A stretch of 28,902 nucleotides of DNA from a virus. The stretch lies in the UHGV virus genome UHGV-1442816, one strand, 5' to 3'. Below the pieces are notes generated by a model that was not told the origin of the DNA, made no database searches, and saw nothing but the letters and a program-made list of their open reading frames with translations. A program made the position numbers and the translations under genes. Below are positions 2,833 to 28,902 of this stretch, piece after piece. Positions within the stretch are counted from its first letter, which is position 1. Every line of letters begins with the position of its first letter.

Positions 2833-3572
2833 TATTGCGGCCCTCCGGTAGTTCCCCCGCCAGTCTGTACTCCGCCATGTTTATGCGTGGCGACACTGAT
2901 ACCAGAAGCTGTTACGTCATTCGTTACCGTCACCGGCCCAAGCATCGTCGCAGTACCGCCGCTTTCGCCCATTCCCTGAGACAAGTTGCCATTAATCGTT
3001 ACGTTGCCGTTCAGCGTGATAGTCGGGGATGTGATTGTCGTTCCACCTTCAGCCGTAGCCGTGAGCTGGCCCGGTGTTTGAACGGTGATGTTATGTCCTG
3101 CGGCAACCTCTACGAACGCCGCACCATCATCGGTTCGCAGCTGCGCGGCGCTGGTACTGATACCGCTGATTTTCTGTGCTTGCGACTGCGGGCCAACGAT
3201 GGCGAACGCATCAGATAAGTCATGCTGTCGCGGATCGACGGTCTCCTGAACGCCGCCGCTCTGCCACCAGAAATCGATGCAACGGTCGGCAAAGATAAGC
3301 AGGCATTCGTCGCCTTCTTTTACCGGAAAAGTCAGCGTACAACCGCCGCCACGCGGGAAGATAACCGGCACATCCACCAGCGGTTTTAATTCGGTGGAGC
3401 CATCGCCAACGATACCGCGAAGCGCTACCTCTACCGTGCAGGTAACAGTATCAGGATCGAACGACTGAATGATGCCGGGCATCGCTACGCGCATCTGGGT
3501 AGACACCGAATCGGCAATGGCCTGCGCGGTCTGCTGCTCACCGCCGATCTGTGATTGAGTTGGAATTGGCAT
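2832..3572 (-). CDS. Baseplate spike / assembly protein V (Mu gp45 / P2 gpV-like)
   Basis: 246-aa ORF with glycine-rich C-terminus (GGVQTGGGTTGGPQ) and position between hub and gp25-like genes. Confidence 0.65.
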   Translation of the reverse strand: MPIPTQSQIGGEQQTAQAIADSVSTQMRVAMPGIIQSFDPDTVTCTVEVALRGIVGDGSTELKPLVDVPVIFPRGGGCTLTFPVKEGDECLLIFADRCIDFWWQSGGVQETVDPRQHDLSDAFAIVGPQSQAQKISGISTSAAQLRTDDGAAFVEVAAGHNITVQTPGQLTATAEGGTTITSPTITLNGNVTINGNLSQGMGESGGTATMLGPVTVTNDVTASGISVATHKHGGVQTGGGTTGGPQ

Positions 3573-20162: not shown

Positions 20163-20421
20163 CTGTTTGTCCTGCCCTGTTGTTCTCGAAAGTCCTGATA
20201 TCAGCCTTATCCCTGTTGCACTGTGCTAACGCTGACAACAACGCAACATTCAGGTTAAGGCTTGCTCCCCACGTAAACGGATCGGGTAAATCTGGCTGGG
20301 GTGTTTCAGCCGTCAGGCTGGCTGGTAATGGAACTACCGGAACCGGCACGTAGACCGTTCGCGTATTCGTGCAGCCGCTTAACTGCGCCAGCAGGCACAA
20401 CACGAACAGCACAATCATCAT
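20143..20421 (-). CDS. o-spanin (Rz1-like outer-membrane lipoprotein)
   Basis: ORF track gives 20143..20487; I start at the internal Met giving MMIVLFVLCLLAQLSGC, a lipoprotein signal with lipobox LSGC, followed by a proline-rich segment. Partly overlaps the Rz 3' end in another frame. Confidence 0.55.
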   Translation of the reverse strand: MMIVLFVLCLLAQLSGCTNTRTVYVPVPVVPLPASLTAETPQPDLPDPFTWGASLNLNVALLSALAQCNRDKADIRTFENNRAGQTDGTIKR

Positions 20422-20698
20422 CCGCAACAGCCACTTTGATATCTTTCTGGGTTCTCTGTGACTCCAGTGCGATCTGCTGTTTTGCATGCTGGTTAACCTC
20501 TATAACTGTATTGACGAGTTGCAGTGATTGCAGGACGTTACGGGTAATGGCTGTTGCAGATTCAGCATTTTGTACAGCCTCATCAGCACGTTTCTTTTCG
20601 TGCTGATATTTGCTGTAGTAGTGGTTGGCAGACCAGATGAAAGAACCAATGACAGTAAAGAAGAATGCAGCGATAACCAGCTTATAGCTCAACTTCAT
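20306..20698 (-). CDS. i-spanin (Rz-like), not lambda Rz
   Basis: 130-aa ORF with an N-terminal transmembrane helix and a charged, coiled-coil-like periplasmic region; start overlaps the endolysin stop. Confidence 0.6.
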   Translation of the reverse strand: MKLSYKLVIAAFFFTVIGSFIWSANHYYSKYQHEKKRADEAVQNAESATAITRNVLQSLQLVNTVIEVNQHAKQQIALESQRTQKDIKVAVADDDCAVRVVPAGAVKRLHEYANGLRAGSGSSITSQPDG

Positions 20699-21158
20699 TT
20701 ACCACCCCACCTGCCTCTTTAAACCGGGAAATCAGGTCACTGATTTTATGTTCATACTGACCGTAACCTGCACCGGGTAACGACGCCCAGATATTGCTGC
20801 AACGGTCGATAGCCTGACGAATATCACCGCGATCAATCATCGGCAAAGCGCCACGTTCCTTAATCTGCTGCAATGCCACAGCGTCCTGGCTTTTCGGAGA
20901 GAAATCTTTCAGGCCAAGTTGCTTACGGTAGGCATCCCACCAACGGGAAAGAAGCTGGTAACGTCCGGCTGCTGTTGATTTGAGTTTTGGGTTTAGCGTG
21001 ACAAGTTTGCGAGGGTGATCTGAGTAATCAGTGAATAGCTCTCCGCCAACAATGACGTCATAACCATGATTTCTGGTTTTCTGTCGTCCGTTATCTGTTC
21101 CCTCTGACCACGCCAGCATATCTAGGAACGCCTTACGTTGATTATTGATTTCCACCAT
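20682..21158 (-). CDS. R: Endolysin, lambda R-type lytic transglycosylase
   Basis: 158-aa translation [49 protein letters not shown]... matches lambda R over most of its length by my recollection, diverging at the C-terminus. Confidence 0.9.
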
Positions 21159-21465
21159 CTTCTACTCCGGCTTTTTTAGCAGCGAAGCGTTTGATAAGCG
21201 AACCAATCGAGTCAGTACCGATGTAGCCGATGAACACGCTCGTTATATAAGCGAGATTGCTACTTAGTCCGGCGAAGTCGAGAAGGTCACGAATGAACCA
21301 GGCGATAATGGCGCACATCGTTGCGTCGATTACTGTTTTTGTAAACGCACCACCATTATATCTGCCGCGAAGGTACGCCATTGCAAACGCAAGGATTGCC
21401 CCGATGCCTTGTTCCTTTGCCGCGAGAATGGCGGCTAACAGGTCATTTTTTTCTGGCATCTTCAT
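21142..21465 (-). CDS. S: Holin, lambda S-type, with dual-start motif
   Basis: 107-aa translation [39 protein letters not shown]... is near-identical to lambda S by recollection; Met1-Lys2-Met3 dual start is retained. Confidence 0.9.
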
Positions 21466-24651: not shown

Positions 24652-24826
24652 ATTTCCTCGCACGATGTCTTAGCCACCGGATATCCCACAGGTGAGCCGT
24701 GTAGTTGAAGGTTTTTACGTCAGATTCTTTTGGGATTGGCTTGGGTTTATTTCTGGAGCGTTTCGTTGGAAGGTATTTGCAGTTTTCACAGATTATGTCG
24801 GTGATACTTCGTCGCTGTCTCGCCAT
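24650..24826 (-). CDS. ninE: NinE
   Basis: Below size cutoff. Translation [58 protein letters not shown], with AGGAGG Shine-Dalgarno upstream; matches my recollection of lambda NinE. Confidence 0.7.
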
Positions 24827-24966
24827 ACGTCCTCCTTTTCCTGCGGTAGTGGTAAAACTCCTGTTGGTGTTCTTTCACACCGGAGACACCATCGATTCCA
24901 GTAAGGTTGATTTGGTCTGAAGCGGTTATCTTCTTTGCATTCACCGCACCGATCACATCGCATCAT
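24793..24966 (-). CDS. ninD: NinD (zinc-ribbon-like)
   Basis: 57 aa from the Met whose ATG overlaps the ninB stop: [34 protein letters not shown]... Overlaps ninE by 34 nt as I recall for lambda ninD/ninE. Confidence 0.6.
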
Positions 24967-25403
24967 GCTGCCCGGTCTCCCCATCGCGCTTTCCATTCGA
25001 GAGCCAGTCGCGCTTCGTCTGACCACTTAACGCCACGCTCTGTACCGAATGCCTGTATAAGCTCTAATAGCTCCGCAAATTCGCTTACACGCATCCTGCT
25101 GGTTGACTGGCCTATTACCACAAAGCCATTCCCGGCAAGGTTAGGAACAACATCCTGCTGCTTTAATGCTGCGGTAAACACACACTTCCAGCTTTCTGCA
25201 TCCAGCCAGCGACCATGCCATTCAACCTGACGAGAGACGTCACCAAGGCAAGCCCAAAGCTTTCGGTTCTGGTCTAAGCTGCGGTTGCGTTCCTGAATGG
25301 TTACTACGATTGGTTTGGTTGGGTCTGGAAGAATTTGCTGTATCGCGTGAATAGCGTTTTGTTGATGAATGGGGCTTCTTAGTTCAAACGTTAGCTTCCT
25401 CAT
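24963..25403 (-). CDS. ninB: NinB (Orf-family recombination mediator)
   Basis: 146-aa translation is near-identical to lambda NinB by recollection (...[56 protein letters not shown]...). Confidence 0.9.
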
Positions 25404-25638
25404 TGCTCACCTTCTGCACGCATGGATTAATTAACGCCAAAATAGCTTCTGGTTTCTCAATAACATCGAACCGCTCACCACTTGTCATTCTTACAATCGT
25501 AATCCCGGCCTCAAATAGGGTTTCGATGTTGTCAGAGTTAACGTACAAGGGCTCATATGCACTTCTGGTGCTTTCTATCACGCCTGTGCTTGGTGGCTGA
25601 TAGATGCTGCATTGCATGGTTAATTTTATAAATGGCAT
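25384..25638 (-). CDS. Hypothetical protein in the position of lambda ren
   Basis: 84-aa ORF between helicase-side accessory genes and ninB; no lambda Ren similarity. Confidence 0.4.
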   Translation of the reverse strand: MPFIKLTMQCSIYQPPSTGVIESTRSAYEPLYVNSDNIETLFEAGITIVRMTSGERFDVIEKPEAILALINPCVQKVSNEEANV

Positions 25639-25642
25639 ATAC

Positions 25643-25963
25643 TCACTCCTTCACTTTGATTCCAGCAGCGCGGATGTTTTCCTCATAAGCATCCATTGCA
25701 TCACCGAAGCCATTGGAATAATCAACAGTAAACCCTTTGGCTAATGCTTCTCTGCTGTCGATAAACTTTGGCGCGGTTATTTCAATAGCTGATCGCGATG
25801 CCTGCCACGTTTGCCAGTGGCCTTGAACATCGTCCATCACGTATTGACCACCAATATTACCACTGCCAATTTCATGGTGATTTTCAGGGTAACGGATAAG
25901 GTCTGAGGATTCGCCTCCACGTCGCAACCAACTTTCTTCAAACTGCCTTCTTGATTCGTCCAT
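25643..25963 (-). CDS. Hypothetical protein
   Basis: 106-aa ORF, tightly packed with neighbours. Confidence 0.4.
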   Translation of the reverse strand: MDESRRQFEESWLRRGGESSDLIRYPENHHEIGSGNIGGQYVMDDVQGHWQTWQASRSAIEITAPKFIDSREALAKGFTVDYSNGFGDAMDAYEENIRAAGIKVKE

Positions 25964-25980
25964 CGGTACTTACCCTCAGT

Positions 25981-26187
25981 TCAACTCAAAAAACGCCACG
26001 CCATTTTTGCTACAGCGACAGGCATAACACCGATAATCACCCAGACAAATGCAGCGCCAAACAACGTATACCATGGGTCTTTACCGTCATTCACAAGACG
26101 AATGTAGCCATGCAGAACAATAAAAAACGTCAGAAGAATCCATCCAACGCCGACGCATTTGAGTGCGACGAGCATAAACTCAACCAC
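25981..26187 (-). CDS. Small membrane protein with two predicted transmembrane helices
   Basis: 68-aa ORF starting at GTG; hydrophobic stretches VALKCVGVGWILLTFFIVL and FGAAFVWVIIGVMPVAVA. Confidence 0.45.
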   Translation of the reverse strand: MVEFMLVALKCVGVGWILLTFFIVLHGYIRLVNDGKDPWYTLFGAAFVWVIIGVMPVAVAKMAWRFLS

Positions 26188-26263
26188 GATTTACTCTCCC
26201 CCAAATAAAAAGGCCTGCGATTACCAGCAGGCCTGTTACAAGCTCAGTGATGTAGATGGTCAT
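26180..26263 (-). CDS. 27-aa hydrophobic peptide, translationally coupled to helicase
   Basis: Not in ORF track. ATG overlaps helicase stop (TGATG) with AAGGAGG 7 nt upstream; product MTIYITELVTGLLVIAGLFIWGRVNRG is one transmembrane helix; its stop overlaps the start of the 68-aa gene. Confidence 0.35.
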   Translation of the reverse strand: MTIYITELVTGLLVIAGLFIWGRVNRG

Positions 26264-27714
26264 CAGAATCCTCCTTTCTTCTTGGACTGCGGTTCCTCGC
26301 GTTCACGTCGGCGCATTTCAGCAGACTGTTGGTCTGTGTCATAAATAGCGCCATTTGCCTGAATGCAATACACCGTGCCGGTATTGCCATGACGATTGAG
26401 ACGAAGGATTAGTTCGGTTTCACCAGGTGGAACACTGTCATCAAAAGCGCCTTCACGATGGATCCCAACCCAATAATCGCAATCCTGTTCAATCTGCCCT
26501 GTATCGCGCGAGTCACTTGGTAATGGGCGTTTATTGGTTCGGCTTTCCAATGCGCGGTTAAGCTGTGTCAGAAGCACAACAACGCAATCAAGCTCTTTGG
26601 CAAGGTTCTTCAATCCTTTGGTGATCATGCCGTAAGCAAGGTCGTTGCGATCGGCCTTCTCAGCAGTCATTAGTGTCAGGTAATCGACCAGAATCATGCC
26701 AACGCATCCTTTTTCTCGCTTGATTCGACGGCTTTCGCTGACGATTTGAGCCAGAGATAATCCCGGCGTGTCGTCGATGTAAAGCAGGTCGATTTCACTC
26801 AAGCGATTGGCTGTTTCGATCGCCCTGTTGAAGTCACCATCGTAATCACCCTGATAGCCGTCATCAGCGTCATTTGTCGCCGGAAGGTAAAAAATATTCG
26901 GGTTAACACCTGACTTCTGTCCTACCAGTTTTTCCAGTATCTGGTCACCTGGCATTTCAAGGCTGAACATCAGAGCGGGCTTTTTCTCATGCACCGCACA
27001 GTTGATTGCCATCTGGCTGTATAGCGTCGTTTTCCCCATCTTAGGGCGAGCGCCAATGACGAACAGAGAGCCTTTCACCAGACCTTTCGGTGACAGCATC
27101 CTGTCCAGCGATGGGATCCCTGTGCTCATTCCCCGTTGTTCGCCTGATGGGTCAAATCGTTTCTCAAGGTCGCTAACCCAGTCTTCCATAACCTCACCAA
27201 ATGAGCGAAGGCCGCGACGCGATCCGGTTTTTGCATGGTCTGTCAGTTGCGTGAAAATCGCCTGAATAGCTTCGTACTTCTGCGTCGCAGTCATTCCGTT
27301 GCGGGAATAGAGCAATTCCGTCGCTTCAGTCATGCGGTTGATGGCGTAGCGTTCCATTGCGGTTTCGCGAACCTGCATTGCATAGGCAACGATGTTTGCG
27401 GCGCTTGGCGTGTTCTTTGCGATCTCAGTGATATAAGCAAAACCGCCAACAGACGCCGTTAACGATTTACGCTCCAGTTCATCGAAAAGCGTCAGGCCAT
27501 CTACTGGCTTTTGCTCCCGGTGCATTCTGGTTATTTCTTCGAAAATGATTTTGTGTGGTCGGCTGTAAAATGAATCAGGCTTCAGCATCGCCAGAACTTT
27601 CTGGACGCGCTCACTGCTGTCATCATCCAGAAGCAATCCACCAATCACCGCCTGCTCTGCCTCGATGCTATGGGGCGGCGCATAAAAATTATCGGTCATC
27701 GTGTTCACCCTCAC
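26263..27714 (-). CDS. Replicative DNA helicase, DnaB family (P22 gp12-like)
   Basis: 483-aa ORF with N-terminal AEQAVIGGLLLDDD (DnaB N-domain-like) and Walker A GARPKMGKTT. Confidence 0.85.
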   Translation of the reverse strand: MRVNTMTDNFYAPPHSIEAEQAVIGGLLLDDDSSERVQKVLAMLKPDSFYSRPHKIIFEEITRMHREQKPVDGLTLFDELERKSLTASVGGFAYITEIAKNTPSAANIVAYAMQVRETAMERYAINRMTEATELLYSRNGMTATQKYEAIQAIFTQLTDHAKTGSRRGLRSFGEVMEDWVSDLEKRFDPSGEQRGMSTGIPSLDRMLSPKGLVKGSLFVIGARPKMGKTTLYSQMAINCAVHEKKPALMFSLEMPGDQILEKLVGQKSGVNPNIFYLPATNDADDGYQGDYDGDFNRAIETANRLSEIDLLYIDDTPGLSLAQIVSESRRIKREKGCVGMILVDYLTLMTAEKADRNDLAYGMITKGLKNLAKELDCVVVLLTQLNRALESRTNKRPLPSDSRDTGQIEQDCDYWVGIHREGAFDDSVPPGETELILRLNRHGNTGTVYCIQANGAIYDTDQQSAEMRRREREEPQSKKKGGF

Positions 27715-28579
27715 GAACTTTCAGGTAGGTATTATCGTTAAGCAGGAAATCAAATCCCTTTTTGTGCCAGACGGTTCCGCGTTGATGGTTTTGGCGCTCT
27801 TCGAACATCCATCGGCAATTTTCGCCTACGTAGCTCAAATAATTTCTCCAGTCCTGCATCGTGAACCCATGCCCGTCAAGCTGGCGGGTTATCACTCCGG
27901 CTTTGCGCCAGAACGTTCGGATCTGGTTTTTACGCTTGTCATTCAGTGCGCGGATTTTTGGCGCTTCAGGAAGGATTTCGTGGTAAGCATCGACAACATC
28001 CTGACAGCTAACGGAAGGTTTTTTCTTGTCAGACTTTTTGTCTGCTGCGGTACTCTCTAATACGTCAGTATTAGAGATATTATTTATATTATTGTTTATG
28101 GACAACCGTTGGACAACCGTTGGACAATCTCCGCTGAGAGCCGCGCCATTACTGGTGTTTGCGTTGGACAACCGTTGGACAACCGTTGGACAATTTTTTG
28201 CCTGAAAATCGTCATATTTAACGATTGTAAACAGGCTAAATTTCTTCCCCATCGAGCAAATATTAAGCATCCCTTTCGACTCAAAAGTCCGTAATAAGCT
28301 CCGAACTTTGTTGTCGGGGATGAATGTTTCTCTGACCAGCGACGGGCGTCCAGTTATCATCTGACCGCGATCAACAGTTATCGGCCCGATATCCGTATTG
28401 ACGACAGTAGATTCGTGATTAGCCTTGAGGATTAAGTGAAGCCAAAGATGTACTGCCTGAGAGTCCTTATAGAGCCTGCTGTCCATAAACTGGCGGTGTA
28501 TAGAGACATACCCCATACTGGATGCCTCCTGATGTTGTACAGGGTTATGCCTGTAATCAGCTAACTTAACGACGCCCAT
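27689..28579 (-). CDS. Replication initiator, O-like, with origin iterons inside the coding sequence
   Basis: 296-aa ORF directly upstream of the helicase gene; mid-gene iteron clusters encode the repeated peptide CPTVVQRLS. Confidence 0.75.
   Translation of the reverse strand: MGVVKLADYRHNPVQHQEASSMGYVSIHRQFMDSRLYKDSQAVHLWLHLILKANHESTVVNTDIGPITVDRGQMITGRPSLVRETFIPDNKVRSLLRTFESKGMLNICSMGKKFSLFTIVKYDDFQAKNCPTVVQRLSNANTSNGAALSGDCPTVVQRLSINNNINNISNTDVLESTAADKKSDKKKPSVSCQDVVDAYHEILPEAPKIRALNDKRKNQIRTFWRKAGVITRQLDGHGFTMQDWRNYLSYVGENCRWMFEERQNHQRGTVWHKKGFDFLLNDNTYLKVREGEHDDR
28099..28195. repeat. Replication origin iterons: two clusters of TGGACAACCGT repeats
   Basis: TGGACAACCGT at 28099, 28110, 28165 and 28176, each pair followed by a partial copy (TGGACAAT); 35-bp spacer; AT-rich tracts on both sides (28040..28098 and 28191..28245). 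Confidence 0.7.
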
Positions 28580-28727
28580 GTTTCACTCCTGCTTTGGCTA
28601 GTCTGTAAACACCAACAAGGCGCTCTGCGAACGCCCTGTTATTTGCTGCGGCTACCACTAATCCCTCAGGTGAATCAGGGTGTCGAATCTCTTCTTTTTC
28701 CTGGTATTTCTTACGACGTTTTGTCAT
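28569..28727 (-). CDS. Small basic protein between cII and O, unknown function
   Basis: Not in ORF track. ATG at 28727 preceded by AGGAG 5 nt upstream; product MTKRRKKYQEKEEIRHPDSPEGLVVAAANNRAFAERLVGVYRLAKAGVKHGRR (52 aa); stop overlaps the O start. Confidence 0.4.
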
Positions 28728-28736
28728 AATGACTCC

Positions 28737-28815
28737 TGTGGATTGATCCAGTAATGACCTCAGAATTGCATATCAATTTGCTTAAAATCCTCGGTGGCGG
28801 CCGGGGATTTTTTCT
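28737..28815 (+). ncRNA. oop-like antisense RNA overlapping the cII 3' end (putative)
   Basis: Plus-strand hairpin AAAATCCTCGG-TGGCGGC-CCGGGGATTTT followed by TTCTTTGT at 28784..28820 lies antisense to the cII 3' end, as for lambda oop. A possible -10 CATAAT at 28725..28730 would give a ~77-nt transcript. Confidence 0.4.
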
Positions 28816-28902
28816 TTGTGATTTCATCAAGCGCATACTTAAAAGCCCTGCTAATCGGACTGATGTCTGATGCCATTCCTAAAGCACACAAGACCGAAGC
28901 AA
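28760..28902 (-). CDS. cII: CII-like transcriptional activator, C-terminal 47 codons (5' partial)
   Basis: Minus-strand ORF entering from beyond the window end and stopping at TGA 28762..28760; C-terminus ...ITKKKSPAATEDFKQIDMQF resembles lambda CII ...NKKRPAATERSEQIQMEF. Confidence 0.65.
   Translation of the reverse strand, partial: ASVLCALGMASDISPISRAFKYALDEITKKKSPAATEDFKQIDMQF

Follow-up and report, generated by a model that had tools for sequence, protein, structure and literature searches.

Two small reading frames after the helicase gene of a lambdoid prophage: ninA laid over the tR2 terminator, and a catalogued gene for a predicted two-helix membrane protein

What are the two very small reading frames that follow the replicative helicase gene in the virus genome UHGV-1442816? 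The stretch analyzed here, 28,902 nucleotides (nt) long and called the window throughout, carries at positions 25,981 to 26,263 a 27-amino-acid (27-aa) open reading frame (ORF) and a 68-aa ORF. An earlier reading, made from the letters only, had described them as a rarely annotated pair of membrane proteins translationally coupled to the helicase and had offered holin-like, toxic, superinfection-exclusion or replication-anchoring roles. Both ORFs lie where that reading had placed them, on the minus strand and with ATG and GTG starts, and the AAGGAGG within the 3' end of the helicase gene and the ATG overlapping the helicase stop could be read directly. The window holds a lambdoid prophage that reads from right to left, with the genes in the order O-like initiator, DnaB-like helicase, 27-aa ORF, 68-aa ORF, nin genes, Q and lysis genes. 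By itself a frame of 27 codons is no more than chance would provide. The comparative data show that neither ORF is a chance frame, because the two products match phrog_5907 and phrog_1165, 172 of 178 related loci retain an intact 68-codon frame, and the overlaps between the genes recur in many unrelated gene contexts.

The 27-aa product matched phrog_5907 over residues 1-26 of 27 (E 1.1e-18). Megablast and blastn searches found the segment in more than 400 phage records, with a cassette of about 70 nt that is 94-100% identical. The DNA is 99% identical to ninA of HK620, and the HK620 record labels the identical ORF ninA ("similar to P22 NinA") and marks the terminator tR2 within it. The Nil2 record likewise has ninA with tR2 labelled inside, ninA is annotated in 933W as well, and the record of phage 434 has a hypothetical protein like lambda Orf26 with a terminator inside it. 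In P22 an 81-nt ninA lies between gene 12, the helicase gene, and ninB, and its product is entered as 26 aa of unknown function (PMC4837284). The ORF in the window has the position typical of the family, directly after a replication gene with an overlap and directly before the first nin gene, and this geometry was alike in all contexts examined. In bacterial genomes, a 106-nt core has copies with 100% identity in RefSeq E. coli genomes, and we counted 2918 matches to the cassette, distributed over 1995 of 5426 complete E. coli genomes. Collectively, these matches identify the 27-aa ORF as ninA, the counterpart of lambda Orf26 and of NinA in P22, HK620 and Nil2. The gene was described in 1982 (Kröger and Hobom, as cited in PMC4824070), and the same paper cites the ribosome profiling of Liu et al. 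(2013) as support for NinA translation. Knowledge of ninA and tR2 goes back to the early 1980s, and several phage records annotate them; the 27-aa ORF is thus no rarely annotated novelty.

What the sequence-only reading overlooked is the terminator. The best terminator-like site that a scan found in the region of about 4 kb lies inside ninA and reads AGGCCTGC-TGGTAATC-GCAGGCCT followed by TTTTATTT. The corresponding hairpin has an 8-bp stem (AGGCCUGC/GCAGGCCU) with six G-C pairs and an 8-nt loop, is followed by UUUUAUUU, and the centroid fold contains its stem. The lambda tR2 oligonucleotide given in the supplement of Li et al. 2015 (PMC4824070) has a 34-nt core, AACAGGCCTGCTGGTAATCGCAGGCCTTTTTATT, that was found exactly at 26237..26204(-). 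By this identity, codons 10-20 of ninA are lambda tR2. In lambda, tR2 follows the NinA AUG by 30 bp and precedes the NinA stop codon by 16 bp, and its termination efficiency in vivo is about 0.9 when it lies at least 30 nt from an upstream stop codon (PMC4824070). Folding the 96-nt ninA segment as a whole gave an unremarkable z-score of -0.53; of the structure in this segment, the local hairpin alone matters. An Rfam scan of 24800..28902 at E <= 1 returned no match; intrinsic terminators are not Rfam families. The hydrophobic core of NinA, GLLVIAGLFIW, is the translation of the tR2 hairpin and U-tract. The proposed single membrane helix therefore stands as a hydrophobic segment, and this segment, being set by the terminator, gives no evidence for a membrane function.

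The conservation of the locus was assessed in about 300 related loci, collected in three sets that were anchored on the 68-aa protein, on the hairpin, and on a back-translated pattern of the NinA N-terminus that excluded the canonical sequence. In the first set, which is unbiased for the cassette, the mean pairwise divergence between the two main clades was 1.0% for the hairpin, 2.9% for the U-tract with the following Shine-Dalgarno-like element, 4.7% for ninA codons 1-10, and 48-53% for codons 5-45 of the 68-aa gene. Because the hairpin has diverged by about 1% and the adjoining gene by about 50%, the alignments argue that the dominant constraint on the hairpin region is exerted on the RNA. 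Compensatory changes were found in the stem: G-C to A-U in three loci (L305, L307 and L308; AGGCCUAC...GUAGGCCU) and a C-G to G-C flip in an Enterobacter locus (L301; GGGCUGC...GCAGCC). In an alignment of 18 sequences, 97.2% of the cells were paired, two of the eight pairs had double changes, and three changes led to G-U; the observed covariation score was reached in 1 of 500 shuffles, on 18 sequences with few independent events. In one further locus (L008, about 2950..2975, immediately before the 68-aa gene) the hairpin has its loop inverted, GGCCTGC-GATTACCT-GCAGGCC as compared with GGCCTGC-TGGTAATC-GCAGGCC. This variant looks like a flip of the hairpin interior that kept the stem and changed the NinA peptide to GLRLPAG. 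Another locus (L012) carries an in-frame duplication of 15 nt within the hairpin.

A coding signal is present in the N-terminal part of ninA. Among the variants at codons 2-10, 15 are synonymous and 11 alter the amino acid, as compared with a neutral expectation of 26% synonymous (p = 6e-4). All four threonine codons occur at codon 2 and five leucine codons at codon 8, and the synonymous-biased variation spans phages of Escherichia, Salmonella and Enterobacter. Divergent copies retain MT-x-YITEL-x-TGLL, and in Enterobacter the frame is kept despite a net change of +3 nt. A metagenome scan for divergent ninA with the back-translated pattern gave 0 matches. These data show protein-level constraint on the MTxYITEL N-terminus, and the peptide itself may have a role. 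Two variant arrangements were also seen. In five loci (L010, L108, L187, L258 and L286; for example L010 2813..2999) an unrelated 62-codon frame (MELMRVKH...KDK) replaces the N-terminus of ninA, traverses the tR2 hairpin in the frame of ninA and ends at the identical overlapping stop. In Enterobacter sp. R1 (L301 3454..3543) a divergent ORF resembling ninA and tR2, MTAYITELSTGLLTIIAAFFICAAGRKDK, has ATGA and GTGA overlaps and sits after an FlbD-like gene rather than after a replication gene.

The overlaps at both ends of ninA proved consistent across gene contexts. At least seven types of upstream gene were found, including two helicase types, ren-like genes and a 633-codon gene, and in all of them the stop codon overlaps or abuts the ninA ATG (ATGA, TGATG/TAATG, TAAATG), with a GGAG/GAGG-type motif (GGAG, GAGG or AAGGGG) 6-12 nt before it. 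At least eight downstream genes begin at or within the ninA stop (ATGA, GTGA, GTGGYTGA, ATGGTTAA, TAAATG): ninB, the 68-aa family, a phrog_343-like protein, two single-pass membrane proteins (of 108 and 90 aa) and three more. In all downstream contexts GGGGGAGAG is conserved immediately 3' of the U-tract, and the record of phage 434 annotates it as the ribosome-binding site for ninB. In the window, the helicase stop and the ninA start share one base (TGATG), and ninA and the 68-aa gene overlap by 8 nt (GTGGTTGA). Exceptions to the overlaps were singletons with indels in G or T runs. The geometry of translational coupling that had been proposed is real, and it is conserved. NinA and the 68-aa protein are joined in frame in some Salmonella prophages (P0012, P0014 and P0018; locus L168), where the G/T run behind the U-tract carries an indel; the resulting ORFs, of 93-94 aa, are annotated and would have three predicted helices.

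Collectively, these data support an explanation that we regard, taken as a whole, as very probable: the two ORFs sit where the replication module meets the nin region in the early-right (pR) operon of a lambdoid prophage, tR2 would terminate transcription here as it does in lambda, and ninA would be a translated ORF that bridges the terminator and is constrained both as RNA and as peptide. In lambda, pR transcripts end at the U-tract of tR2 as long as the phage antiterminator has not modified RNA polymerase. Transcripts from pR would end at the U-tract in this prophage too when RNA polymerase is not so modified, and N-type antitermination would override the terminator. Terminated transcripts would contain ninA without its stop codon and would thus be non-stop messages. 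On read-through RNA, translation of ninA would carry ribosomes over the terminator to the start of the 68-aa gene, because the ninA start overlaps the upstream stop and the ninA stop overlaps the downstream start; the 68-aa gene would in this way be translationally coupled to ninA. The GTG of the 68-aa ORF lies about 15-20 nt past the tR2 release point, so the protein would be made from read-through transcripts alone, and the region scan found no promoter-like site ahead of the gene. The 68-aa protein would insert in the inner membrane.

A different possibility is that what matters is translation of ninA over tR2 and not the peptide, with ribosome traffic tuning termination or marking terminated transcripts for decay dependent on transfer-messenger RNA; this would link translation of the replication genes to expression of nin and Q. 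In every context 29 nt separate the upstream stop from the beginning of the hairpin, a distance near the threshold of about 27-30 nt past which a terminating ribosome no longer represses tR2 (PMC4824070), as such a role might lead one to expect. In the reporter used in that work, moreover, terminated transcripts were non-stop for NinA and upstream gene expression was halved (PMC4824070). However, the NinA initiation site was "not weak" in the reporter, and its translation lowered termination efficiency, and silencing its initiation changed it, by just about 10% (PMC4824070). A pure spacer or traffic role also leaves the amino acid conservation of MTxYITEL unexplained. We therefore hold this account to be somewhat unlikely and favor a bridging ORF with a constraint on its peptide.

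We turn now to the second frame. The 68-aa product matched phrog_1165 over its full length (residues 1-68 of 68, E 2.2e-38). It falls among 61 protein clusters, all of them from Escherichia or Salmonella and named hypothetical, and with a length of 68 aa in nearly every case; the closest clusters are 94-96% identical to it. RefSeq has it as hypothetical protein WP_063113106.1 with the same GTG start. The gene is omitted from some phage records (HK620, H-19B and HK022). In the loci with an intact frame the start codon keeps one position; it is GTG in the E. coli types (155 loci) and ATG in the Salmonella clade (17 loci). The sequence-only reading had tied its case to conservation of the two frames in close relatives, and this conservation was found at the protein level: in addition to the synonymous bias in ninA, the Nei-Gojobori ratio of nonsynonymous to synonymous divergence (dN/dS) for the 68-aa gene was 0.25-0.56 between three clades, with a proportion of synonymous differences (pS) of up to 0.69. 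In the C-terminal third of the gene (25981..26052(-), codons 46-68) between-clade pS was 0.20, as compared with 0.6-0.9 elsewhere, which could stem from a mosaic joint within the gene or from constraint at the nucleotide level. We also considered a second terminator within the 3' end of the gene (26017..25999) and rejected it, as the pattern match was weak and the fold no better than shuffles (z = +0.82). By these comparisons the 68-aa ORF is a genuine gene from a catalogued family to which no function has been assigned.

The description of this product as a two-helix protein was borne out by prediction: hydropathy gave two hydrophobic segments, and AlphaFold2, run on a 22-sequence alignment, predicted a helical hairpin (H2-33 and H38-67; mean predicted local distance difference test score, pLDDT, of 91). 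The predicted topology is probably N-in/C-in, because two basic residues lie at the C-terminus and the positive-inside rule applies. Searches of the AlphaFold model against BFVD and PDB with Foldseek returned no match at E <= 0.001, just generic helical hairpins. The profile matches of the small ORFs to an antiporter subunit G (E 0.054) and to T4SS_pilin (E 0.008, with 16.7 bits where the cut-off is 26.6) were sub-threshold and driven by composition, and both were discarded. When 1.84 billion representative proteins were searched with a profile, only 25 relatives emerged, including proteins of 63-66 aa with the motif K..G.GWM...DP....W...G..PV..VKF.W; a locus search with a tighter alignment of the relatives gave four loci. 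The relatives in Enterobacter, Izhakiella and Erwinia stand right after replication genes and have overlapping starts, with no ninA between. In Enterobacter (L301 3194..3214) a separate terminator-like hairpin follows immediately after the gene for the 63-aa two-transmembrane protein. Among E. coli and Salmonella loci, a phrog_343-like gene follows in 100 of the 135 unique loci with the 68-aa gene, as compared with 6 of 65 that lack it, and the 106-aa phrog_343 protein is a possible functional partner. Most likely, we infer, the 68-aa protein acts on some membrane component of the host as a non-essential factor of the delayed-early stage, possibly together with this 106-aa neighbor.

Could NinA and the 68-aa protein instead be membrane-active effectors, that is, holin-like proteins, depolarizing toxins or superinfection-exclusion factors? 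Both products are hydrophobic, the 68-aa product is confidently predicted as a helical hairpin, the slot after ninA is elsewhere filled by the 108-aa and 90-aa single-pass membrane proteins, and the NinA N-terminus appears constrained as a peptide. However, the small ORFs matched no holin, toxin or defense family in Pfam, PHROGs or NCBIfam, and the fold search gave no significant match. The window has its holin-endolysin-spanin cassette elsewhere: the holin, endolysin and Rz genes lie about 5 kb downstream of the 68-aa gene, which is itself a nin-region gene, and we rejected a holin identity for its product because of this location and the absent family match. Both genes belong to a delayed-early operon, with the 68-aa gene behind tR2 and no promoter-like site of their own found, unlike exclusion genes expressed in the lysogen. 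The core of NinA is fixed by the terminator sequence, and one lineage has a nonsense mutation in the 68-aa gene. With regard to a type I toxin and its cis-encoded antisense RNA, the region scan found no opposite-strand promoter-like site near the ORFs, and the Rfam scan had given no match. We hold effector functions to be distinctly improbable; for the replication anchor that had been proposed beside them there is likewise no supporting evidence.

Least probable of all, and in our judgment very unlikely, is that the 27-aa frame is no gene and merely an incidental opening across tR2 and its flanks: this would fit the hairpin and U-tract being the most conserved part, the retention of the hairpin alone where the 62-codon frame has displaced the NinA N-terminus, an ATA in place of ATG in one locus and the absence of the ORF from Prokaryotic Genome Annotation Pipeline annotation, but it is contradicted by the Shine-Dalgarno-like motif and overlapping junctions in every upstream context, the overlaps in the downstream contexts, the synonymous bias at codons 2-10, the frame kept through indels in divergent copies, the efficient initiation of NinA in the reporter (PMC4824070), and the fact that the 62-codon frame itself still crosses the hairpin in frame to the same overlapping stop.

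Several points weigh against the favored explanation of ninA as a bridging ORF before a functional 68-aa gene. N and nutR lie outside the window, and for antitermination we rely on what holds in lambda. In the codon-bias test 26 variant codons were treated as independent events, and the near-identity of the cassette across phages could be due in part to frequent recombination where modules meet, instead of to selection on each base. Six loci of an H-19B-like lineage (L003, which is H-19B, L076, L077, L079, L081 and L082) have in common a nonsense codon at codon 15 of the 68-aa gene; the gene is therefore dispensable and can be lost without loss of the phage. Constraint on it is just moderate, given the upper dN/dS of 0.56 between clades and a value of about 1.2 within the small Salmonella clade. 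The membrane insertion of its product and its topology are predictions.

The features of the junction and its surroundings are collected in Table 1. The early genes downstream of the 68-aa gene are, in order, the 106-aa phrog_343 ORF, the 84-aa FlbD-like ORF, NinB, NinE, NinF, two HNH genes, RusA and the Q antiterminator. The RefSeq name of the helicase is 'DnaB-like helicase C-terminal domain-containing protein'. Pfam describes FlbD as 'Flagellar and Swarming motility proteins', and phrog_8458 is entered as 'flagellar protein' in the moron/host-takeover category; an FlbD-like ORF occurs together with the 68-aa gene in just 7 of 135 unique loci, and an FlbD-like homologue adjoins the distant two-transmembrane relative in Enterobacter (L301 3233..3457). 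Within the O-like initiator gene, 28026..28300 (both strands) is repeated DNA with a duplicated peptide, CPTVVQRLSN, and repeated promoter-like matches (TGGACA...GACAAT) occur at 28099 and 28165; the repeats are probably origin iterons. Megablast matches to other phages start exactly at the helicase stop/ninA start (26263/26264) or stop exactly at the stop of the 68-aa ORF (25981); the cassette thus doubles as a point of mosaic recombination between modules that are not related in other ways.

Table 1. Features at and around the junction of the replication module and the nin region, in window coordinates
Feature	Position	Strand	Evidence and remarks
O-like initiator (phrog_345)	27689..28579	(-)	
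DnaB-like replicative helicase, 483 aa	26263..27714	(-)	Pfam DnaB E 9e-32, DnaB_C E 3e-60; TGA stop 26265-26263
AAGGAGG, Shine-Dalgarno-like	26270..26276	(-)	6 nt before the ninA ATG, within the helicase 3' end
ninA, 27 aa, MTIYITELVTGLLVIAGLFIWGRVNRG	26180..26263	(-)	phrog_5907; ATG 26263-26261, TGA 26182-26180
Intrinsic terminator tR2 (by sequence)	26203..26234	(-)	Terminator scan, centroid fold; ninA codons 10-20
GGGGGAGAG, Shine-Dalgarno-like element serving the gene after tR2	26194..26202	(-)	6 nt before the 68-aa GTG
68-aa gene, predicted two-helix membrane protein	25981..26187	(-)	phrog_1165; GTG start 26187-26185
106-aa ORF	25643..25963	(-)	phrog_343 (E 9e-30); usual downstream neighbor of the 68-aa gene
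84-aa FlbD-like ORF, nin region	25384..25638	(-)	Pfam FlbD PF06289 E 2e-6, above gathering score; phrog_8458
Holin (phrog_126), endolysin and Rz spanin genes	20306..21465		Canonical lysis cassette

Much of this is ordinary: ninA, tR2 and the overlapping nin chain are published, and the 68-aa family is catalogued. Three aspects may be modestly new, namely the dual constraint on ninA as RNA and peptide, the consistency of the bridging overlaps across gene contexts, and the placement of a 63-68-aa family directly after replication genes. A bolder view, which we put forward only tentatively and consider doubtful as a whole, would make ninA truly dual-coding, a terminator RNA and a conserved membrane micro-peptide (MTxYITEL..GLL..F) with a regulatory role at the transition from replication to nin expression, and would make the 63-68-aa family, which in several Enterobacterales prophages always comes first after the replication module and usually has a phrog_343 gene behind it, a new delayed-early host-takeover module at the membrane. 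The locus also carries a caution, since a hydrophobic "micro-protein" can be an intrinsic terminator translated, with the G+C-rich hairpin giving Gly, Leu and Ala codons and the U-tract giving Leu, Phe and Ile codons. More than 40 years after its description, ninA lends itself well to the study of RNA and protein constraints that overlap. Many Shiga toxin (Stx) phages carry the 68-aa gene, and even a modest function would concern many prophages of pathogens.

How do the parts of this junction compare with known systems? Class II holins and pinholins such as S21 are small phage proteins with two transmembrane domains. The 68-aa protein resembles them in size and in its two predicted membrane helices, and differs in having no sequence or profile match, in lying outside the lysis cassette and in lacking a charged C-terminal tail. 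To the phrog_1165 family of Escherichia and Salmonella lambdoid phages its likeness is full-length, with no difference. The tR2 element is identical to the measured lambda oligonucleotide in hairpin, loop and U-tract, with no difference in sequence, and likewise stands where the nin region begins; the antiterminator expected to override it in this prophage lies outside the window. NinA is like lambda Orf26 and the P22-type NinA in its position right after the last replication gene or ren, in the equal start overlap and in the embedded tR2, and the peptide MTIYITEL[VI]TGLLVIAGLFIWGR is common to the family and the 27-aa ORF. Its C-terminal tail is RVNRG, as opposed to RGKS in the lambda and P22 types, because the downstream junction sets the tail and the next gene here is the 68-aa ORF and not ninB. 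Finally, as in the interlinked nin gene chain of lambdoid phages (Kröger and Hobom 1982, as cited in PMC4824070 and PMC8022706), stop/start overlaps link the replication gene, ninA and the first nin gene; the overlaps are TGATG and GTGGTTGA in this prophage and of the ATGA type in the canonical chain.

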